From positions 1 to 29,561 of IMG/VR virus record IMGVR_UViG_3300026229_000001: a stretch of 29,561 nt of DNA. One strand, given 5' to 3'. How positions within the stretch are numbered: the stretch's first letter is position 1; each line of letters starts with the position of its first letter. Origin of the DNA: a virus. The notes beneath the pieces are model-generated. The model was not told the origin of the DNA and made no database searches. It was given only the letters and a program-made list of their open reading frames with translations. Shown here piece after piece: positions 7,442-29,561 of this stretch. The position numbers and the translations under genes are program-made.

Positions 7442-7822
7442 CTATTCTTCTTCCCCGGTGTAGCTGGTGGTGTTGGTGTACTGGGTGAGTGTGATCAGGC
7501 ACTGGTCGGCCCACTGTTTCACCGTCTGCCGTGTCACACCCAATCGTTGGGCTGCCACCGAATAGGTTTGATCATACCCGTAGACTTCCCTGAATGCGGC
7601 AAGCCGTGCTAGCCGTTTCCGCTGTTTGGATGGTTCACATGTGAGGGTGTAGTCGTCGATGGCCAGTTGTAGATCGATCATGGCTACAAGGTTGTTGCCG
7701 TGGTGTTGTGGCGCGGTTGGTGGGGGTGGCATGCCCGGTTCGACACTCGGTTTCCATGGGCCGCCGTTCCAGATCCATTGGGCGGCTTGGATGATGTCGG
7801 CTGTGGTGTAGGTTTGGTTCAC
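7442..7822 (-). CDS. DNA-binding protein with a C-terminal helix-turn-helix (sigma region-4-like)
   Basis: 126-aa ORF. The segment FREVYGYDQTYSVAAQRLGVTRQTVKQW resembles region-4 or LuxR-type HTH units. This is pattern recognition only. Confidence 0.7.
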   Translation of the reverse strand: MNQTYTTADIIQAAQWIWNGGPWKPSVEPGMPPPPTAPQHHGNNLVAMIDLQLAIDDYTLTCEPSKQRKRLARLAAFREVYGYDQTYSVAAQRLGVTRQTVKQWADQCLITLTQYTNTTSYTGEEE

Positions 7823-10849: not shown

Positions 10850-11521
10850 TTACTGTAGCACAGTGTCTAGTGCTTGTGTCAACCCTGTTTTGCCGGCCTG
10901 CAGGTAGGTGTCTGTGACATCCCCAACTGTGAGGGGCACATGGGTGGCTTGCGGTAGTGCTTGGGCGAGTGTTTTTGCCATCTGGTGGCCTGCCGGGTCG
11001 GGGTCGGACCAGATGTAGATGTGGTCGTAGCCTTCAAAGAATTTGGTCCAAAAGTTTTGCCACGAGGTTGCGCCGGGTAGGGCTACGGCCGGCCATCCGC
11101 ATTGTTCGAGGATCATGGAGTCGAATTCGCCTTCGCAAATATGCATTTCGGCTGCCGGGTTGGCCATGGCGGCCATGTTGTAGATGGAGCCTGTGTCTCC
11201 TGCCGGGGTCAAATATTTGGGGTGGTTGTGGGTTTTGCAGTCGTGCTGGAGTGAGCAGCGGAAACGCATTTTTCGTATCTCGGCTGGGCCGCCCCAAACG
11301 GGGTACATGTATGGGATGGTGATGCACTGGTTGTAGTTTTCGTGGCCTGGTATGGGGTCATTGTCGATGTATCCAAGGTGGTGGTAGCGGGCTGTTTCTT
11401 CGCTGATGCCTCTTGCCGAGAGCAGGTCGAGAATGTTTTCGAGGTGGGTTTCGTAGAGGGCCGAGGCTTTCTGGATTCGGCGGCGTTCCGCAATGTTGTA
11501 TGGGCGTATGCTGTCGTACAT
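10850..11521 (-). CDS. DNA primase, TOPRIM/RNA-polymerase module
   Basis: 223-aa ORF. It has DnaG-like LSARGISEETARYHHLGY, the TOPRIM motif ICEGEFDSM, and IYIWSDPDPAG. Confidence 0.88.
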   Translation of the reverse strand: MYDSIRPYNIAERRRIQKASALYETHLENILDLLSARGISEETARYHHLGYIDNDPIPGHENYNQCITIPYMYPVWGGPAEIRKMRFRCSLQHDCKTHNHPKYLTPAGDTGSIYNMAAMANPAAEMHICEGEFDSMILEQCGWPAVALPGATSWQNFWTKFFEGYDHIYIWSDPDPAGHQMAKTLAQALPQATHVPLTVGDVTDTYLQAGKTGLTQALDTVLQ

Positions 11522-11768
11522 TCGGGTTTTCTTTCTCTAATTGTTGTTGTAGTTTGGCGAGTCCGCCTCCGACACCGCATGTGTGGCAGTACCAGACGCC
11601 CTTGTCGAGGTTGATGCTCATGGAGGGCTGGTGGTCGTCGTGGAACGGGCAGAGTATGTGTTGCTCGTTCTTGGACGGATTGTACCGTATCTGGTAGGTG
11701 TCGAGGAGGCGGCAGGTGTCAGAGGTGTGGGAGGAGCTCGTTGAGGGTTGATACCACATAGGCTTCAC
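11358..11768 (-). CDS. DNA primase zinc-binding (CHC2) module, in a different frame from the TOPRIM ORF
   Basis: It carries the motif CPFHDDHQPSMSINLDKGVWYCHTCGVGGG. Plausible starts are GTG 11768 or ATG 11759. Beyond about 11521 the frame turns Pro/Arg-rich and overlaps the TOPRIM ORF, so the true 3' end is uncertain. Confidence 0.75.
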   Translation of the reverse strand: MKPMWYQPSTSSSHTSDTCRLLDTYQIRYNPSKNEQHILCPFHDDHQPSMSINLDKGVWYCHTCGVGGGLAKLQQQLEKENPNVRQHTPIQHCGTPPNPESLGPLRNPPRKHSRPALGKRHQRRNSPLPPPWIHRQ

Positions 11769-12078
11769 TCCAGGGTTTGTTGCGCTGTTTCATGATGACG
11801 AGTCCGATAGTGGACTGGTTTTCGCGGTTTCGGTGTGTTTCGTAGTTGCGTGCCTCCCGGCTGGCTTGTCTCACGAATTCGGCGAGATGGGGCTGGCCCG
11901 CTTTCGCTTCTATCACATAGGTTTTGTTGCCGGTTTTGAGGATGAGGTCGCCTTCATCCTCTTTACCGTTGAGGTGGAGGCGCTCAATATTGTGTCCGGT
12001 GTCGCGTAGCTGGTGTAATAGTCGTGTTTCCCATTCTGCGCCTGCCCTGCGGTTGCGTGACTGTTGTGAAGCCATCAT
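11719..12078 (-). CDS. PD-(D/E)XK nuclease, archaeal Hjc-type Holliday-junction-resolvase-like
   Basis: 119-aa ORF. It shows the pattern GAEWE...GDLIL...YVIEAKAG (E, D, ExK). The ATGATG start overlaps the helicase stop. Confidence 0.75.
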   Translation of the reverse strand: MMASQQSRNRRAGAEWETRLLHQLRDTGHNIERLHLNGKEDEGDLILKTGNKTYVIEAKAGQPHLAEFVRQASREARNYETHRNRENQSTIGLVIMKQRNKPWSEAYVVSTLNELLPHL

Positions 12079-12938
12079 AGTCCTTTATGTTCTTGTGTCA
12101 TGTTCCATGGCTGTTTTTCGGCAAGTGGCCCGAAGAATGTGTATTCGGGGTAGGCTCGGAGCCGTTCGTATCGGGTGCCGTCGGGGCTGGATTTGCCGGT
12201 GCGCTGTTTAAGTACGGCGATGCGCGCCTCTGCCGGTATCGTGAGCCCGTTGCCGTTATCCTCGCCACCATACAATGAGACTCCGAGGATGAGTTGTGGT
12301 TTTTCGGAGAGGCCGTTTTTAATTTCCCTGCGTGCCGGCGGGTGTTCGATGTCGGAGCCGGTTTTGTCGGTTGCGTGGTGGGTGACAATAATGGTGGAGC
12401 CAGTATCTCTACCTAACGCTGTGATCCATTGCATGGCTTCTTGCTGGGCTTGGTAGTCGGATTCGCAGTCTTGAATGTCCATCAGGTTGTCGATAACAAT
12501 GATGGGCGGGAAGGTGTTCCACATTTCCATGTAGGCTTGTAGCTCCATGGTGATGTCTGTCCATGTGATGGGTGACTGGAATGAGAATGTGATGTGTTGG
12601 CCGTGGTGGATGCTGTCTCGATAGTATTCTGGCCCGTAGTCGTCGATGTTTTGTTGTATCTGGGCGGTGGTGTGTTGTGTGTTGAGTGAGATGATTCGTG
12701 TGGAGGCCTCCCAGGGTGTCATGTCCCCTGATATGTAGAGGGCGGGCTGGTTGAGCATGGCGGTGATGAACATGGCTAGCCCGGATTTTTGGCTGCCGGA
12801 CCGCCCCGCGATCATGACGAGATCCCCTTTGTGGATGTGCATGTCCAGGTTGCGGTAGAGGGGTTCTAGCTGGGGTATGCGGGGCAGTTCGGCTGCGGTT
12901 TGGGAGGCTCTCTCGAAGGATCTTTGGAGAGAGAGCAT
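12075..12938 (-). CDS. DnaB-like replicative helicase (RecA-fold domain)
   Basis: 287-aa ORF. Walker A is AGRSGSQKSG and Walker B-like is PPIIVIDNLMD. It sits next to the primase. Confidence 0.88.
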   Translation of the reverse strand: MLSLQRSFERASQTAAELPRIPQLEPLYRNLDMHIHKGDLVMIAGRSGSQKSGLAMFITAMLNQPALYISGDMTPWEASTRIISLNTQHTTAQIQQNIDDYGPEYYRDSIHHGQHITFSFQSPITWTDITMELQAYMEMWNTFPPIIVIDNLMDIQDCESDYQAQQEAMQWITALGRDTGSTIIVTHHATDKTGSDIEHPPARREIKNGLSEKPQLILGVSLYGGEDNGNGLTIPAEARIAVLKQRTGKSSPDGTRYERLRAYPEYTFFGPLAEKQPWNMTQEHKGL

Positions 12939-12978: not shown

Positions 12979-13452
12979 TCAGATGGAGTCGATGTCGATA
13001 TCAGCATCAGTTGAGGCTGTGGTGTCGTCTAGCTGACCGTTATCGCGCTTGTCTACATATTCGGCAACCTTATCGTAGATGGCGTCGTCTAATGGTTTGA
13101 GCACGACCGCGTTGAACCCGTTTTTGGTGCGTACGGTGGCTAGTTTGAAGGCCTGCTCCTCGCCAAGGTACGCCTCTAGATCGCGGATCATGGAGTGTGG
13201 GCGGTCATTGTTGCCGCGGGCTTTCTCAATAATAGCGTTGGGGATTGTTTCTGGGGTGCCATTGTTGAGATCATCTAGGGTGTGGAAGATGGTCACATCA
13301 GCATAGATGCGGTCGGCGGTTTGTCCGCCGTAGCCTTCGGTGTTGTGCTGAACGTCGCGGATTTTGAAGGCGATGGCGGTGGCATCCTGGTTTCGGGAAG
13401 GGTTGAAGAAGGTGCTGTTGCTGTTGTTGTTGCGGTAGTTTGCGAGTCCCAT
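12979..13452 (-). CDS. Hypothetical protein with an acidic C-terminal tail (possible ssDNA-binding or recombination accessory protein)
   Basis: 157-aa ORF with the RBS AAAGGAAA. The tail ...DDTTASTDADIDIDSI resembles the protein-recruiting tails of SSBs. No OB-fold motif can be verified by eye. Confidence 0.7.
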   Translation of the reverse strand: MGLANYRNNNSNSTFFNPSRNQDATAIAFKIRDVQHNTEGYGGQTADRIYADVTIFHTLDDLNNGTPETIPNAIIEKARGNNDRPHSMIRDLEAYLGEEQAFKLATVRTKNGFNAVVLKPLDDAIYDKVAEYVDKRDNGQLDDTTASTDADIDIDSI

Positions 13453-16769: not shown

Positions 16770-17078
16770 TTATCGTGTAGCTTCGGCAATGATGGCGTCC
16801 ACGTCGATCGTGTCGATCATGTCGTGGAGGTCTTCTGCCTCGTCCGGGGTGAGTGGCTGCCAGCCGGGTGGCCCATACACTGCACCGTCGAGGGTGACAG
16901 TCCACATGGGTCGGATGAGTCGTATGGCTTCTTGTACTTTAGCGTGGTACATGCGGCGCACCATAGCCAGATCCATGTCGTCTGAATGGTCTCCGGTGAG
17001 GCTGTGGAGGCTGAGGGGGTCGATTTCTGTCTGCCCGTAGAGGCTGGTGAAGGATGGTGTGATGAGTGTGCCATCCAT
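16770..17078 (-). CDS. Early-region hypothetical acidic protein, paralogue B (102 aa); first gene of the leftward arm
   Basis: ATG at 17078 after AAAGGAG. It has the same length as its paralogue and shares the residues Y, V, RP, DG, V, W, PLT, EA, L, I, V and R. Confidence 0.75.
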   Translation of the reverse strand: MDGTLITPSFTSLYGQTEIDPLSLHSLTGDHSDDMDLAMVRRMYHAKVQEAIRLIRPMWTVTLDGAVYGPPGWQPLTPDEAEDLHDMIDTIDVDAIIAEATR

Positions 17079-17134
17079 GGGTGTGCTCCTTTCGGTGGTG
17101 TAGGGATTGTCGCGGTTTCTAGAGTGTGCGGGCT

Positions 17135-17164
17135 GCGACCCCATGTCAAGGCTACGCTCATTCG
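17135..17164 (-). promoter_or_regulatory. Palindrome-plus-TTGACA box, copy 2 (candidate leftward early promoter/operator)
   Basis: Read on the minus strand: CGCTCA-atccgaa-TGAGCG, then 5 nt, then TTGACA. The hexamer starts 62 nt upstream of the ATG at 17078. Confidence 0.45.
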
Positions 17165-17749
17165 GATTGAGCGTTTCATGCTGGAGTGTCTGGTGTGACA
17201 GATGTCACTTAAGCCATTATGGCCTCTCTCAGCGCCTGATATATGTCCGGGGTAGGATTATATAGGGTTGGCCCTGCTGTTCGATTCTAGGGCCCTTCTA
17301 GGGCGTCTCAGGGGTATGTCTGGGTGATAGCGGGTGTGGCAGATGATCTAGCGAGTCAAGGTGCCGAGCTGAGACATAAGATCTATCATCTAGGTGTGTG
17401 AGATGCATCACATCCTCCTGGCTTAGTGTGCACCCTCAAGGCTACTCTGCCCATCTGGCGTGGAGGGTGTAGCCCAGAAATGCCGTTTAAAGCTTCAGGG
17501 GTACGCCTAGGAGCGCCTTGCAGGGTGGGGGCTAGGTATTTATACCCCCAGCATATTCTGATCGATTATAGACGCCTACAGGAGCTTGATACGCGATCCG
17601 CTATCCAGACGCAGATCATCAGCCCCCATCTTGCTTAGCTAAGCCTGCACTATGTGGACAGTGTGGGATGCTAAGAGGGAAGAAGGACACGGTAAAAAGA
17701 AGAGGGGGGAGCATCAGCCTTCACACCTTAAGGTCTTAGCACTGATGGA

Positions 17750-17786
17750 CTTAGCACCGAGCCCCTCAAGGGCTCGGCATCAGCCC
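17750..17786 (+). repeat. 37-bp perfect direct repeat, copy 1 (contains hairpin 17757-17777)
   Basis: The sequence cttagcaccgagcccctcaagggctcggcatcagccc is identical to 18272-18308. It holds an 8-bp stem, ccgagccc with gggctcgg, and a 5-nt loop. Confidence 0.95.
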
Positions 17787-18271
17787 GAGCAGGCTCAGCC
17801 CATCAGGCACAGCCCTGAAAGGGGTACACGCCATCAGGGAAGGCTTGAGAGTACGAGGAGCCTTAGCGACGAGTACTCGAAAGCCTGAGGGAACACCATC
17901 AGCACTGATGGGCCTAGCGTGTTCGGAAAGAACACAGGAGTACAGTGTGACAGCTGTCCGGGAGTGAACCCGTTCTGACTAGGGGTTTCAGCCTTAACCA
18001 CCCTCAAAGGTTACAAGACTCTAAGAAAATTTAAGGAAAAGTTTAGGTTTAATTTTTGGACCTTTACCACCAAAAACACCCGTTTACACCCCTCAAACCC
18101 GCCTATAGAGCCAAACGCCGATGTTGAGGGTATCTCTACCTAGTGTGATAGGCTGGACAGGTAGCCAGCTGGACGCAAGGCCAGAAAGTGCTGACGCACT
18201 TCCCATCCTCGCTTACCATCAGTCTACCAAACACTTAAAGACCTAAGGGCTTAGCGCTAAGGTGCTGATAG

Positions 18272-18308
18272 CTTAGCACCGAGCCCCTCAAGGGCTCGGC
18301 ATCAGCCC
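18272..18308 (+). repeat. 37-bp perfect direct repeat, copy 2 (contains hairpin 18279-18299)
   Basis: Identical to 17750-17786, offset by 522 bp. Confidence 0.95.
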
Positions 18309-18360
18309 TAAAGTCTTAAACACTTAAAGTACATATAAAACTTTAAAAGCTTAGCACTTA

Positions 18361-18660
18361 AGGTTATCAATAAACATTAAAGCTTTAAAATCTTAAAGTA
18401 AATATAACACCTTAAAGGCTTAGCACTTAAGGATATAAACTTTACATCAGTGTTTAAGACTTTAAAACTTAAAATAACTATTAAGACTTAAAGACTTATA
18501 AGCTTTAAACACTTAAAGTAACTATAAGACTTTAAAAACCTTAAGTACTTAAGGTTAACCATCAGTCTTAAACTTTAATATTATAACCTATAAGCTTTAA
18601 GACTTATAGGTTATAATATAATATAAGTTATAAAAGTTTTAGAAGAGCTAAAGGGTTAAC
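18361..18660. repeat. AT-rich core (23% GC) built from CTTAAAG / CTTTAAA / CTTAAGG-type motifs
   Basis: Hand count: 14 G+C in each of the five 60-nt lines 18361-18660, which is 70/300. It contains the 20-bp perfect palindrome at 18537-18556 and the 17/8/17 inverted repeat at 18578-18619. Confidence 0.9.
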
Positions 18661-19047
18661 TTCTTTACTTCTCTACTCTCTTTGGTACTTTCTCTCTTCT
18701 CTTCTTTTCTTCATCAGGGGAGAAGAGGAACCTTTACCGTCAACGCTGATGAGCTTTCACCGTGTGACTCGTGTACCACCGGTCGTACGCTCCCGGTTTG
18801 TACACTCCCCACACTTACTCTACCCGTGCCCCTTTAAGGCTTGGCGTGTTCGGCTGAAGGCGTACGGCGTGTCACGCCAACACCCTTAACACTAGGTAAG
18901 ACTTAAAGTGTATATTATATGTAGAAGACTTTAAAAACTTTAAGGGTGTTCCTGCTGAGCCCGTGTCCTTCAACGCTAGGCGCCAAGCGCTAAGCCTTGA
19001 AACGCGAACACACACCCACCCCCTTTTTTCTTTCGTGTCCTTCTCTT

Positions 19048-19076
19048 TTGACACAGCTGGGGGGCGATGTGATTTT
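19048..19076 (+). promoter_or_regulatory. Candidate rightward promoter upstream of the HNH gene and cos
   Basis: TTGACA at 19048-19053, a 17-nt spacer, and TG-t-GATTTT at 19068-19076. The -10 element is weak. The candidate rests on its position only. Confidence 0.3.
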
Positions 19077-19265
19077 TCTCACATGCCAGGGGGTAGTGGA
19101 GAAAACAACCACCCCAGAATATTCAAGACACCCCCTCAAACAAACAAAACAGCCCCTAGAATCGACTAGCAGGGCAAGGGTAGAGTATTCATACCCCCAA
19201 CGGTTCCCAGGCCGTTACAGAGGCAAATAAGACCCATACAAGGCTAGGCGAGGAACAGACACAAC

Positions 19266-19568
19266 ATGGCACGCACCAACCGCACAGCCACCGCAGCCCA
19301 CCGACGCTGGCGGCAACGACTCATCACCCAAGCCCGACAACAAGGCCAAACCGAATGCCCACTCTGCGGAGCAACCATCACCTGGAACACCCATGATCTC
19401 CCAACCAGCCCCGAAGCCGACCACATCACACCCGTCAGCAGGGGAGGACTCAACACCCTCGACAACGGGCAAATCATCTGCAGAACATGCAACAGAAGCA
19501 AAGGCAATCGCAGCGAACCAAACATCCAATTCCAACAACAAACCACAAAAACCCTGATCCCATGGTGA
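19266..19568 (+). CDS. HNH endonuclease
   Basis: 100-aa ORF with the RBS GAGGAA. The motif runs CPLCG...EADHITPVSRGG...LDNGQIICRTCNRSKGN. It lies 52 nt upstream of cos. Confidence 0.9.
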   Translation: MARTNRTATAAHRRWRQRLITQARQQGQTECPLCGATITWNTHDLPTSPEADHITPVSRGGLNTLDNGQIICRTCNRSKGNRSEPNIQFQQQTTKTLIPW

Positions 19569-19619
19569 AAAACCTGCCAACCCCCACCGGGGACACCCCC
19601 TGCACAGGCGTGCAAGACC

Positions 19620-19630
19620 TCGTACGGCTT
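19620..19630 (+). other. cos cohesive-end sequence (physical genome ends)
   Basis: The 11-mer tcgtacggctt is followed by agtgaaatacctccc. This matches my recollection of the 11-base single-stranded extension and the first bases reported for P. acnes phage genomes. It sits between the HNH and TerS genes. The recollection is unverified. Confidence 0.7.
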
Positions 19631-19685
19631 AGTGAAATACCTCCCTTTTGTGGATTTGTCTGTTTGTCGACTTTTTGTGTTGGTG

Positions 19686-20003
19686 GTGAGTGTTGTGCAG
19701 CCTGAGCTTCCCGGGTCTCGTGATTGGTGTGGGGAGACGCGTCGTTGGTGGCGTGTGTGGGGTGAGGATAGCCGCGCGCAGTATGTGTCTGATGAGGAGT
19801 GGCTGTTTCTCATGGATGCTGCGGTGATTCATGATGTGGTGTGGCGTGAGGGTCGCGCGGATTTGGTGGCTTCGCTTCGTGCTCATGTGAAGGCTTTTAT
19901 GGGTATGTTGGATCGGTATTCGGTTGATGTGGCGTCTGGTGGCCGTGGTGGGGGTTCTGCGGTGGCGATGATTGACCGGTATAGGAAGCGCAAGGGGGCC
20001 TGA
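19686..20003 (+). CDS. Terminase small subunit (by position)
   Basis: The ORF is open from 19632, but its first codons lie on the genome end and are T-rich. Plausible starts are the in-frame GTG/TTG codons at 19677-19695. It lies directly upstream of TerL. Confidence 0.7.
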   Translation: MSVVQPELPGSRDWCGETRRWWRVWGEDSRAQYVSDEEWLFLMDAAVIHDVVWREGRADLVASLRAHVKAFMGMLDRYSVDVASGGRGGGSAVAMIDRYRKRKGA

Positions 20004-27453: not shown

Positions 27454-27750
27454 ATGAGTGGCACAGGTTACACATTAAAGATCGGTGACCATAGCTGGGT
27501 GTTGGCGGATGCGGAGGAGACGGCTCAGGCTGTTCCTGCCCGCGTTTTCCGTCGTGCCGCTAGGATTGCCCAGTCGGGGGAGTCTGCGGATTTCGCCCAG
27601 GTTGAGGTGATGTTTTCTATGTTGGAGGCTGCCGCCCCGGCTGACGCTGTGGAGGCTCTGGAGGGGCTTCCTATGGTGCGTGTGGCCGAGATTTTCCGCC
27701 AGTGGATGGAATACAAGCCTGGCGGTAAAGGGGCTTCCCTGGGGGAATAG
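27454..27750 (+). CDS. Tail assembly chaperone (G-like, short product)
   Basis: 98-aa ORF between the major tail and tape measure genes. Confidence 0.85.
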   Translation: MSGTGYTLKIGDHSWVLADAEETAQAVPARVFRRAARIAQSGESADFAQVEVMFSMLEAAAPADAVEALEGLPMVRVAEIFRQWMEYKPGGKGASLGE

Positions 27751-28136
27751 TTTGGCTCCACGGCCTGATTGATGATTATCGTGGGGCCATCGAATACGAT
27801 TTCCGCACTAAATTTGGTGTTTCTGTTTATAGTGTTGGTGGCCCGCAGATGTGTTGGGGTGAGGCTGTCCGGCTGGCTGGCGTGTTGTGTACCGATACGT
27901 CTAGCCAGTTGGCGGCCCACCTGAATGGTTGGCAGCGCCCGTTTGAGTGGTGCGAGTGGGCTGTGCTGGACATGTTGGATCATTACAGGTCTGCTAATAG
28001 TGAGGGGCAGCCGGAGCCTGTGGCGAGGCCTACGGATGAGCGTAGGGCCCGGTTTACGTCTGGGCAGGTGGACGATATTTTGGCGCGTGTTCGTGCCGGT
28101 GGCGGGGTGTCTCGCGAGATTAATATTATGGGGTGA
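27454..28136 (+). CDS. Tail assembly chaperone (G/T-like fusion made by a -1 frameshift near 27741-27747)
   Basis: The -1 frame is open from 27729. It encodes protein-like sequence (WLHGLIDDYRGAIEYDFRTKFGV...) well before its first ATG at 27849. A G-run, ctg ggg gaa, lies just before the G stop codon. Confidence 0.7.
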
Positions 28137-28143
28137 ATAGTGT

Positions 28144-29561
28144 ATGTCTGGTGAGATTGCTTCCGCATATGTGTCGTTGTATACGAAGATGCCCGGTTTG
28201 AAGTCTGATGTTGGTAAACAGCTTTCTGGGGTTATGCCTGCGGAGGGTCAGCGTTCGGGTAGCTTGTTTGCTAAGGGCATGAAGTTGGCTCTTGGTGGCG
28301 CCGCAATGGTGGGAGCTATCAATGTTGCTAAGAAGGGTCTCAAGTCGATTTATGATGTGACTATTGGTGGCGGTATTGCTCGCGCTATGGCTATTGATGA
28401 GGCCCAAGCGAAGTTGACTGGTTTGGGTCATACGTCTTCGGACACGTCTTCGATTATGAATTCGGCTATTGAGGCTGTTACTGGTACGTCGTATGCGTTG
28501 GGTGATGCGGCTTCTACTGCGGCGGCGTTGTCTGCTTCGGGTGTGAAGTCTGGCGGGCAGATGACGGATGTGTTGAAGACTGTCGCCGATGTGTCTTATA
28601 TTTCGGGTAAGTCGTTTCAGGATACGGGCGCTATTTTTACGTCTGTGATGGCTCGCGGTAAGTTGCAGGGCGATGACATGTTGCAGCTTACTATGGCGGG
28701 TGTTCCTGTGCTGTCTTTGCTTGCCAGGCAGACGGGTAAGACGTCTGCTGAGGTGTCGCAGATGGTGTCGAAGGGGCAGATTGATTTTGCCACGTTTGCG
28801 GCTGCGATGAAGCTTGGCATGGGTGGTGCGGCGCAGGCGTCTGGTAAGACGTTTGAGGGCGCTATGAAGAATGTTAAGGGTGCCCTGGGTTATCTTGGTG
28901 CTACGGCTATGGCGCCGTTTCTTAACGGCCTGCGGCAGATTTTTGTTGCGTTGAATCCGGTTATCAAGTCGGTGACGGATTCTGTGAAGCCGATGTTTGC
29001 TGCCGTCGATGCTGGTATTCAGCGTATGATGCCGTCTATTTTGGCGTGGATTAACCGTATGCCGGCTATGATCACTCGAATGAATGCACAGATGCGCGCC
29101 AAGGTGGAGCAGTTGAAGGGCATTTTTGCGAGACTGCATTTGCCTGTCCCTAAAGTGAATTTGGGTGCCATGTTTGCTGGCGGCACAGCAGTGTTTGGTG
29201 TTGTGGCTGCGGGTGTTGGGAAGCTTGTCGCGGGGTTTGCCCCGTTGGCGGTGTCGTTGAAGAATCTGTTGCCGTCGTTTGGTGCTTTGAAGGGTGCCGC
29301 CGGGGGGCTTGGCGGCGTGTTTCGTGCCCTGGGTGGCCCTGTTGGTATTGTGATCGGGCTGTTTGCGGCCATGTTTGCCACTAACGCCCAGTTCCGTGCC
29401 GCGGTGATGCAGCTTGTGGCTGTGGTTGGCCAGGCTTTGGGCCAGATTATGGCCGCTGTGCAGCCGCTGTTTGGTTTGGTTGCCGGGCTGGTGGCACGGT
29501 TGGCGCCAGTGTTCGGCCAGATTATTGGTATGGTTGCCGGTTTGGCTGCCCAGTTGATGCC
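28144..29561 (+). CDS. Tape measure protein, N-terminal part (runs off the window; continues at 3..1475)
   Basis: ATG at 28144, 8 nt after the chaperone stop. There is no stop codon before the window end. The phase continues into the ORF at the window start through the 127-bp overlap. Confidence 0.93.
   Translation, partial: MSGEIASAYVSLYTKMPGLKSDVGKQLSGVMPAEGQRSGSLFAKGMKLALGGAAMVGAINVAKKGLKSIYDVTIGGGIARAMAIDEAQAKLTGLGHTSSDTSSIMNSAIEAVTGTSYALGDAASTAAALSASGVKSGGQMTDVLKTVADVSYISGKSFQDTGAIFTSVMARGKLQGDDMLQLTMAGVPVLSLLARQTGKTSAEVSQMVSKGQIDFATFAAAMKLGMGGAAQASGKTFEGAMKNVKGALGYLGATAMAPFLNGLRQIFVALNPVIKSVTDSVKPMFAAVDAGIQRMMPSILAWINRMPAMITRMNAQMRAKVEQLKGIFARLHLPVPKVNLGAMFAGGTAVFGVVAAGVGKLVAGFAPLAVSLKNLLPSFGALKGAAGGLGGVFRALGGPVGIVIGLFAAMFATNAQFRAAVMQLVAVVGQALGQIMAAVQPLFGLVAGLVARLAPVFGQIIGMVAGLAAQLM
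29435..29561. repeat. Second copy of the 127-bp terminal overlap
   Basis: Identical to 1-127. Confidence 0.97.

Follow-up and report, generated by a model that had tools for sequence, protein, structure and literature searches.

An AT-rich repeat block near the right end of a Cutibacterium acnes phage genome as a candidate replication origin

What is the role of a block of about 350 bp with 23% GC, filled with short repeated words, in a phage genome that is otherwise GC-rich? The block occupies positions 18310-18660 of the window, the whole 29,561-base stretch of DNA that was analysed, and a preliminary description proposed it as a replication origin on the basis of a perfect palindrome, an inverted repeat and iteron-like 19-mers. 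An origin is still the most economical reading of the block, but the palindrome, the hairpin and the 19-mers are not conserved and do not carry it, and the idea itself is not new. In a comparison of P. acnes phages, all were found to have a non-coding region of >1 kb near the right end, with a GC content below 25% on its left side, conserved low-complexity runs and a change of GC skew within it (Marinelli et al., 2012, mBio; PMC3448167). From the GC drop and the GC skew, the origin was proposed to lie there, and figure S4 of that study is titled "putative origin of replication" (PMC3448167). The hypothesis for this locus is already known and has been in print since 2012, so the present analysis is a refinement and not a discovery. 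A BPROM-type prediction also placed sigma-70 promoters of both directions at the block's right edge, with TTAAAG as the -35 element (Lood and Collin, 2011; PMC3094311), and the non-coding region has been called regulatory (Bruggemann and Lood, 2013). A literature search for experimental mapping of an acne-phage origin found none, which agrees with the earlier remark that no origin has been experimentally defined for this phage group. New here are the anatomy of the CTTAAAG words, the map of natural deletions, the lack of conservation of the palindromes, the placement of the skew switch at cos, and the comparison with a C. avidum phage.

The genomic setting is given by related phages. Megablast with 17900-19300 as the query returned 231 phage records, all of Propionibacterium/Cutibacterium acnes phages (genus Pahexavirus), at identities of 80-91% and in the same orientation throughout. 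In phage P100D (29506 in total), the query corresponds to 27582-29176. Because of this correspondence, the window is a complete, rotated genome of a C. acnes phage (Pahexavirus). An 11-base cos overhang has been published for phage KIT08 (PMC12426086), and its exact match marks the genome ends; IMG/VR and GenBank records of relatives end 52-66 nt past the HNH gene. The AT-rich block lies 960-1310 bp left of the right genome end. The leftward early arm, whose first conserved gene is more than 1.1 kb distant, flanks it on the left; on the other side follow, in rightward orientation, the HNH gene (19266-19568) and, past cos, the terminase genes.

17180-19265, no strand: large non-coding region close to the right genome end, flanked by the leftward early arm and the rightward HNH gene
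19620-19630, plus strand: cos overhang TCGTACGGCTT (genome ends), exact match to the KIT08 overhang

The entire 2.1-kb stretch 17180-19265 is truly non-coding. Eighty related loci were fetched from IMG/VR via the HNH protein, 77 of them full-length, and the 2.6 kb upstream of and including the HNH gene was aligned. In the HNH gene, used as a control, the variable sites of the 80 relatives are distributed 22/13/45 by codon phase; a 3-nt periodicity of variation was found in no segment of 17180-19265 in the same 80 relatives. GenBank records have no feature annotated under the AT-rich core. The small ORFs gp44, gp45 and gp46 of P100D, which are annotated in some records, were rejected as genes, because their variation does not follow codon phase and this genome has them only in broken form. 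No second sizeable non-coding region exists in the genome.

The low GC content first noted for the block is exact: 70 of 300 bases at 18361-18660 are G or C, and 82 of 351 over 18310-18660, compared with 54.2% for the whole window. This block is the sole strongly AT-rich, easily melted stretch of the genome.

18310-18660, no strand: AT-rich core (23% GC; 23.3-23.4%), left two thirds a variable repeat array, right third conserved
18309-18439, plus strand: 69-bp repeat unit in two tandem copies, followed by looser ones at 18456 and 18500
18541-18640, no strand: least stable 100-bp duplex of the genome by nearest-neighbour dG, candidate unwinding element

The nearest-neighbour dG of 18541-18640 is -104.1 kcal/mol, 5.7 sd below the genome mean of -146.4 (sd 7.4 kcal/mol), and the segment sits directly right of the variable array, as an AT-rich unwinding element does beside repeats. 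A repeat search aligned the tandem units over 62 nt at 84% identity (18309-18370 and 18378-18439), and core-internal blastn matches among the repeat copies are 78-81% identical. The core words show no 10-11 bp signal of A-tract phasing or curvature, and an Rfam search of 17000-19800 gave only sub-threshold, chance matches to mir-374 on the AT hairpin.

The repeated words themselves are not random. Chance was assessed with 2000 dinucleotide-preserving shuffles of the AT-rich block itself, in which a repeated 15-mer was reached at a frequency of 0.0035. CTTAAAG, earlier listed as a core word, has 5 copies in the block against 0.25 expected, a count found in 0 of 2000 shuffles. GCTTAGCACTTAAGG does occur twice (18349 and 18418) and AACACTTAAAG three times (18230, 18319 and 18508). 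For AAGACTTTAAAA(A)C, the count of three copies was right but the positions were not: they are 18456, 18526 and 18925, instead of about 18467 and 18527 for the first two. The two symmetrical elements of the preliminary description were also found as described.

18537-18556, no strand: 20-bp perfect palindrome AACCTTAAGTACTTAAGGTT, specific to this genome (perfect in 1 of 80)
18578-18619, no strand: 17/8/17 inverted repeat ATATTATAACCTATAAG / CTTTAAGA / CTTATAGGTTATAATAT, AT-rich hairpin or cruciform, DNA fold -13.2 kcal/mol, z = -7.1

Both are perfect, the palindrome with a shuffle frequency of 0.006 and the inverted repeat with 17-bp arms seen in 0 of 2000 shuffles. The three 19-mers likewise exist, at 18323, 18392 and 18512, the middle copy having been misplaced by ten bases at 18402. 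A check of conservation among the relatives went against all three kinds of element. Only in this genome is the palindrome perfect; in relatives the site reads (G/A)ACCTTAAGTACTTAAAGTT, also given as ..ACTTAAAGTT. Its right half is the common CTTAAAG word, and a single A-to-G change gave the symmetry here. One relative (L036) is without the entire 17/8/17 hairpin, and about 15-20 more appear in the alignment to be without its right arm. The loop, TCTTAAAG in 65 of 80, is flipped to CTTTAAGA in this genome and 3 others. Relatives have 0-3 of the 19-mers (median 1; 3 copies here), with neither number nor spacing conserved, and the description of these as iteron-like, in the sense of 17-22 bp direct repeats, could not be upheld. 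Judged across the alignment, the palindrome, the hairpin and the 19-mers are strain-level accidents of a repeat-rich sequence, and the palindromes are dispensable.

The shorter word CTTAAAG behaves as a local signature. Genome-wide there are 10 copies against 1.5 expected, all in 18234-18944 and none elsewhere.

18234-18944, plus strand: CTTAAAG span, containing all 10 genome copies
18234, 18323, 18392, 18411, 18487, 18512 and 18902, plus strand: CTTAAAG copies
18595, 18832 and 18938, minus strand: CTTAAAG copies

For the wider word family CTT-[A/T]0-4-AAG, 16 of 20 genome copies are within this span. Over the 80 relatives, CTTAAAG is found 614 times on the plus strand and 102 times on the minus strand, and its best-kept sites are those at about 18902 (77 of 80), 18548 (67), 18596 (65), 18411 (60) and 18512 (52). 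The copy number ranges from 3 to 12, and the spacing is irregular, with periods of about 8.5-9 and 35 bp. The conserved repeat word in these genomes is the 7-bp CTTAAAG alone, variable in number and spacing.

Relatives without the AT-rich block had been named as evidence that would speak against an origin. None was found: 77 of 77 full-length relatives keep the core, at lengths of 178-541 bp (median 355). The right edge of the core is fixed, and the left part gains or loses units, to the extent that in the natural-deletion map of the 80 relatives each part of 18304-18546 is absent from at least one. A core that is universally kept, yet free to vary in the number of its units, suggests redundant sites. 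Conservation is 0.92 over 18541-18660 in the alignment of relatives, and two blocks to the right of the array stand out.

18622-18727, plus strand: nearly invariant block, core right edge plus a polypyrimidine tract ending in CTTCATCAGGGGAGAAGAG
18895-18945, no strand: second small AT-rich block, inverted CTTAAAG / CTTTAAG words around TATATTATAT

The polypyrimidine tract that closes the first block is given as CTTTCTCTCTTCTCTTCTTTTCTTCATCAGGGGAGAAGAG. The longest invariant runs of the 2.5-kb alignment are 18622-18647, 18654-18674 and 18688-18727, and 18629-18660 and 18693-18732 are never deleted among the relatives; one relative (L033) is without part of the pyrimidine tract. The core right third and the tract are more conserved than the neighbouring genes. 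The second block, with a conservation of 0.94-0.98, lies inside the never-deleted run 18834-18936 and has a perfect TATAAT hexamer on the minus strand (18919-18914). This pattern singles out about 18540-18730, the core right third with the pyrimidine tract, as the conserved candidate, and the CTTAAAG array is probably a redundant accessory.

A more distant comparison is offered by the C. avidum phage CA1NRNZ (PV441878), which has a 1.5-kb unannotated gap at the same place. Within the gap is a core of 130 bp and 23% GC, in which a 22-nt repeat occurs three times. This core is flanked by a 25-nt, 92% complementary purine/pyrimidine inverted repeat, with the tracts on opposite strands, and the right-hand tract is homologous to 18648-18712 of the window, the pyrimidine tract beside the AT core. 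A copy related to the upstream element at 19126-19224 (see below) is found at the left border of the CA1NRNZ non-coding region. The words CTTAAAG and CATCAG are both absent from the gap region of CA1NRNZ, and the other blocks that it has in common with this genome are rearranged in order; therefore, the module of an AT-rich repeat core and a pyrimidine tract survives divergence, and the words do not. The pyrimidine tracts of the C. acnes and C. avidum phages have the 15-mer TCTTTGGTACTTTCT in common. A scan of a 596-Gb genome collection with this 15-mer gave random matches in unrelated bacteria, the pattern being too short.

The rest of the non-coding region also contains repeated and palindromic elements on both sides of the core.

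17750-17786, plus strand: first copy of a 37-nt GC-rich hairpin repeat (CTTAGCACCGAGCCCCTCAAGGGCTCGGCATCAGCCC), repeated perfectly and directly at 18272-18308
18272-18308, plus strand: second copy of the 37-nt GC-rich hairpin repeat, immediately left of the AT core
17222-17321, minus strand: inverted ~100-nt upstream element, left copy, ending ~42 nt before the ATG at 17179
19126-19224, plus strand: inverted ~100-nt upstream element, right copy, its end 42 nt upstream of the HNH start codon at 19266
17397-17412, no strand: left-flank palindrome of the CRP/FNR type, TGTGAGATGCATCACA, perfect in 42 of 80 relatives
19068-19083, no strand: right-flank palindrome of the CRP/FNR type, TGTGATTTTTCTCACA, perfect in 72 of 80 relatives

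The hairpin at 18272-18308 has a DNA fold of -10.7 kcal/mol (z = -4.0) and a conservation of 0.96. Phage PAS50 (L043 in the alignment) is without exactly the DNA between the two 37-nt copies. This phage is viable, and its deletion of about 500 bp in the non-coding region has been reported (Lood and Collin, 2011; PMC3094311). The two copies of the upstream element are 67% identical over 101 nt (blastn, E = 7e-8) and have CCCTAGAATCGA..AGCAGGGC in common; the left element is deleted in 6 of 80 relatives, and 19132-19221 is never deleted. No perfect TGTGA-N6-TCACA site exists in the genome besides those at 17397 and 19068, and at 19068-19083 the half-sites are fixed and the spacer is variable among relatives. 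Going by such motifs, the putative promoter-style features are located at the outer flanks, not in the core. The sigma-A consensus of C. acnes is GnTTnG, 16-19 nt, TAnnnT (PMC3848588). A strict search for it found no match in the core and a sole match in 17180-19300, at 17421-17448; this search needs both elements, and promoters with only a -10 element would escape it. In a generic promoter/terminator scan, promoter-like sites were at chance level (3 against 2.1 expected). DnaA boxes, sought as TTGTCCACA with up to 2 mismatches, number 62 genome-wide against 81 expected, with no cluster and none in 18300-18700; a lone box with 1 mismatch is at 17653-17661.

GC skew was considered as a locator of the core. 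Both genome arms have a skew of +0.26 to +0.31, and the non-coding region is near zero; the skew is weakly negative across the core and strongly negative over 19100-19600, the HNH gene included. The sharp change of sign occurs at about 19600, that is, at cos, about 1 kb from the core. Skew was rejected as a pointer to the core because the sharp switch falls together with cos and the HNH gene. GC skew is near zero in the right arm of the C. avidum phage, and therefore the skew there partly follows the coding strand.

The claim that the genome encodes its own helicase and primase was borne out by Pfam and PHROG matches.

12075-12938, minus strand: DnaB-like / AAA_25 replicative helicase, 287 aa, phrog_243 at 1e-96
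10850-11768, minus strand: DnaG-type primase in two overlapping ORFs (zinc ribbon and Toprim), by profile matches

The Pfam scores of the helicase are 28.4 bits for AAA_25 and 26.8 bits for DnaB_C, both near the cut-offs; the primase ORFs match Zn_ribbon_DnaG at 1e-10, Toprim_2/3, phrog_849 and phrog_2304. The phage has neither its own polymerase nor its own RNA polymerase. Among the 20 early-arm ORFs, no initiator protein was recognised by Pfam and PHROG. A 126-aa phage protein has sub-threshold HTH/Sigma70_r4 matches and was named CI-like by the authors of KIT08 (PMC12426086). Candidate HTH proteins of this phage are the product of 7442-7822 and the gp27 homologue. The gene adjacent to the helicase (12979-13452) was considered as a candidate for an origin-binding protein. 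Its homologues are all at least 79% identical and apparently Pahexavirus/C. acnes sequences, and its AlphaFold model is mediocre (pLDDT 61.5). Foldseek with this mediocre model gave no significant match, only weak OB-fold/SSB-like ones at E > 0.09.

The AT-rich block is best read as the replication origin of the phage, with a possible coupling to transcription; we give this reading a probability of roughly one half. The reading starts from observed features, namely the anatomy of the core, its conservation pattern, the instability of its duplex and the genes for helicase and primase. The AT core would most likely be the cis-acting heart of the origin, about 1 kb left of cos. The array of CTTAAAG-type words in one orientation may provide reiterated binding sites for a DNA-binding protein of the phage or the host. 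The array leads into the least stable 100 bp of the genome, 18541-18640, and opening would begin there. The DnaB-like helicase and the DnaG-type primase of the phage could then be loaded at this opened segment, with synthesis by a host polymerase. The polypyrimidine tract 18654-18727 would belong to the same module, and may mark the site of a priming or stabilising transcript.

The features computed here fit an origin or a promoter/operator region alike. Given the published prediction of promoters at the core edge, a role in transcription accounts for a large part of this anatomy as well. The main rival, possible though rather unlikely, is that the block is not an origin but a transcription control region, with divergent early (leftward) and late (rightward) promoters. 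Its place, with the leftward arm on one side and the rightward HNH-cos-terminase genes on the other, suits this, as do the divergent sigma-70 promoters with TTAAAG as -35 element predicted at the core right edge (Lood and Collin, 2011), the label of a regulatory region (Bruggemann and Lood, 2013), the perfect minus-strand TATAAT in the conserved block 18895-18945, and the analogy to the early leftward promoter near the right end of mycobacteriophage L5. The accompanying proposal, that CTTAAAG serves as -35-like elements or as operators for a phage HTH/sigma-region-4-like protein in a choice between lytic and pseudolysogenic states, is equally tentative; the CI-like 126-aa protein, with its sub-threshold HTH/Sigma70_r4 matches, speaks for it. 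However, the core has no strict sigma-A promoter and is at chance level in the generic scan, and 350 bp at 23% GC with 3-12 reiterated words far exceed what a promoter needs. The first conserved left gene is more than 1.1 kb off, separate promoter-like modules adjoin the first genes on both sides, and the invariant pyrimidine tract has no obvious promoter logic. In an improbable variant, the module of AT core and polypyrimidine tract is not an iteron origin but works through a transcript, with an R-loop of leftward RNA priming essentially unidirectional replication. Copied leftward from the invariant tract, this RNA would consist largely of purines, and the R-loop would persist at the border of the least stable duplex. 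Signals for helicase/primase loading or for priming, not initiator sites, would in this case be provided by the repeated GC hairpins and by the CTTAAAG and CATCAG words in their single orientation. Unidirectional replication of this kind would fit the GC and AT skews, which have the same sign in both arms.

A use of the block as a target of an architectural or nucleoid protein (Lsr2-like, IHF-like or a phage protein) is likewise improbable. Such a target could act in compaction, in silencing during pseudolysogeny, in segregation of the episome or as a help in packaging. In its favour, the block is an extreme AT island within a GC-rich genome, its one-orientation words are repeated as in centromere-like arrays, acne phages persist as episomes, and cos is about 1 kb away. 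Against this, partition genes are absent (Marinelli et al., 2012; PMC3448167), the words have no 10-11 bp phasing as needed for planar curvature, 1 kb from cos is far for an accessory site of terminase, and the adjacent invariant pyrimidine tract is left unexplained. More doubtful still is the view that most of the block is non-functional, slippage-prone, low-complexity DNA of which the right edge alone matters. The natural deletions that together cover every part of 18304-18546, the three-fold variation in core length and the strain-specific palindromes speak for this view. However, the array is lost in no genome and has a minimum of 178 bp, and the C. avidum phage has an array of its own; CTTAAAG stands, with its bias in orientation, at homologous sites in 52-77 of 80 genomes, and its count is far above local shuffles.

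The replication origin, which we prefer, would also be of practical use. C. acnes phages are leading candidates for phage therapy of acne and for DNA delivery to a skin bacterium that is hard to engineer. A defined origin would enable phagemids or phage-dependent replicons for C. acnes, and would clarify the episomal persistence of these integrase-free phages.

Among known systems, the putative origin of Marinelli et al. (2012) is the same locus as the AT-rich block, and there is no essential difference. In ori-lambda and in oriR of the P1/pPS10 type, reiterated protein-binding words are likewise found beside an easily melted AT-rich stretch. The AT-rich part of ori-lambda is asymmetric in purines and pyrimidines. 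This asymmetry resembles the tract 18654-18727. Classical iterons are 17-22 bp long, fixed in number, regularly spaced, and located within or beside the initiator gene; in contrast, the acne phage has a 7-bp word in 3-12 copies at irregular spacing, and no recognised initiator gene.

Cluster A mycobacteriophages such as L5 have the same layout: the structural genes form a rightward arm, the early arm begins near the right end and runs leftward, and cos is preceded by a non-coding stretch. In L5, the early leftward promoter is near the right genome end, and this P-left is a compact sigma-A promoter with repressor operators, unlike the 350-bp block of 23% GC repeats in the acne phage. The replication proteins of the two are distantly related: the helicases are about 25% identical, and an L5 gp49-like protein is present. 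Origins of extrachromosomal mycobacterial prophages lie at the genome centre and concern prophage maintenance (Wetzel, 2020). With that central position and that role, they are a loose analogy at best, and were rejected as a model.

The primary origin of T7 and oriF and oriG of T4 consist of a promoter and a downstream AT-rich unwinding element. As in such transcription- or R-loop-activated origins, predicted promoters are found at the edge of the AT core in the acne phage, and RNA made in the leftward direction across the pyrimidine tract would be rich in purines, a composition that favours the stability of RNA-DNA hybrids. The acne phage differs in having no RNA polymerase of its own, and the R-loop step is pure supposition here. 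Finally, oriV of IncQ plasmids (RSF1010) is served by the plasmid's own helicase and primase. The acne phage has no RepC-like iteron-binding initiator, and its primase is of the DnaG type, not the RepB' type. It resembles the IncQ system in its own small hexameric-type helicase (AAA_25/DnaB_C-like, 287 aa) and primase, and in a cis site made up of repeats, an AT-rich segment and hairpins.

The non-coding region between the leftward early arm and the rightward HNH gene (17180-19265) contains the following repeated or symmetrical sequences, one of which is also found in the sequence L083.

17194-17209, CRP/FNR-type site with one mismatch
17222-17321 (-) and 19126-19224 (+), inverted pair of a ~100-nt element, common core CCCTAGAATCGA..AGCAGGGC
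17397-17412 and 19068-19083, perfect CRP/FNR-type palindromes (TGTGA-N6-TCACA), one on each side of the non-coding region
17506-17550 (+), third, partial copy of the ~100-nt element
17681-17711 (+), left purine/pyrimidine tract, AAAAAGAAGAGGGGGGAG
17750-17786 and 18272-18308, perfect 37-nt direct repeat with an 8-bp GC hairpin inside
19016-19044, right purine/pyrimidine tract, complement of the left: CCACCCCCTTTTTTCTTT
30855-30885 of L083, further location of the ~100-nt element

An ATG is located ~42 nt beyond the end of each copy of the inverted ~100-nt pair, and the likeness between the paired copies extends into the first codons (MKRSIR vs MARTNR). The pair may represent twin divergent promoter or leader modules. 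The left copy is absent from 6 of the 80 related loci compared. The two perfect TGTGA-N6-TCACA sites that flank the non-coding region are the only ones in the genome, and when up to one mismatch is allowed, all three sites found genome-wide are in the non-coding region. Both half-sites of the right palindrome are kept in 72/80 relatives while its spacer is variable; fixed half-sites around a variable spacer are the pattern to be expected of a real operator. The purine/pyrimidine tracts, 1.3 kb apart and one on each side of the central non-coding region, are also inverted: over 29 nt they are 79% complementary, and each ends in a G or C run.

Phage PAS50 lacks exactly the 522 nt that separate both copies of the 37-nt repeat. 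Thus, this segment is dispensable, and recombination between the two copies is the probable cause of its loss, since the gap corresponds exactly to the inter-repeat DNA. In the 17/8/17 hairpin of the AT-rich core, the candidate replication origin, the 8-nt loop (18595-18602) reads CTTTAAGA in this genome and three relatives, and the reverse complement, TCTTAAAG, in 65 of the 80. The two versions differ by a short inversion, or "flip", of the spacer that the hairpin arms enclose.

The word CATCAG is concentrated on the plus strand, with 11 copies in 1.1 kb (17617-18712) against 4 in the remaining 27.5 kb. Several copies are within runs invariant among relatives: GGGCTCGGCATCAG (twice), CCATCAGTCTACCAAA and CTTCATCAGGGGAG. 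Counts per relative range from 4 to 13 on the plus strand (median 9), whereas the complement occurs 0-3 times. The invariant 20-mer AGGCGTACGGCGTGTCACGC (18858-18877) includes the 8-mer CGTACGGC; 750 nt further downstream, this 8-mer recurs as the central part of the cos overhang. This match is weak, because one recurrence of an 8-mer in 29.5 kb is about chance level.

Over the whole window, GC skew (+0.26 to +0.31) does not change sign between the rightward arm and the leftward arm, and neither does AT skew (about -0.3); therefore, the coding strand of the early genes is rich in C and A. A sharp change of sign at ~19600 coincides with the HNH gene and cos (19620-19630) rather than with the AT core.

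Two phage genes encode candidate DNA-binding proteins.

7442-7822 (-), gene of a 126-aa protein
12979-13452 (-), gene of a 157-aa protein, adjoining the helicase gene

The 126-aa protein has sub-threshold HTH_23 and Sigma70_r4 matches at residues 70-108, and is one candidate for binding the reiterated words. Apparently, this is the protein named CI-like by the authors on phage KIT08 (PMC12426086). The 157-aa protein is rich in beta structure and has a C-terminal tail that is acidic (..DDVDIDSI), and its homologues apparently come from Pahexavirus/C. acnes sequences only. Its AlphaFold model (pLDDT 61.5) gave weak, non-significant OB-fold/SSB-like matches. Possibly, the protein serves the phage in binding single-stranded DNA.

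The C. avidum phage CA1NRNZ (PV441878) differs in several of these respects. Unlike 17617-18712 of the C. acnes phage, its region is without CATCAG, and its right-arm skew is near zero, unlike that of this genome. The ~100-nt element is present in a single copy, oriented into the non-coding region. In place of the 37-nt repeat, it has an analogous 91-nt repeat pair with a different GC hairpin, CCGCCGCCCTTAAGGGGCGGC. Thus, the structure has been retained while the sequence has changed.
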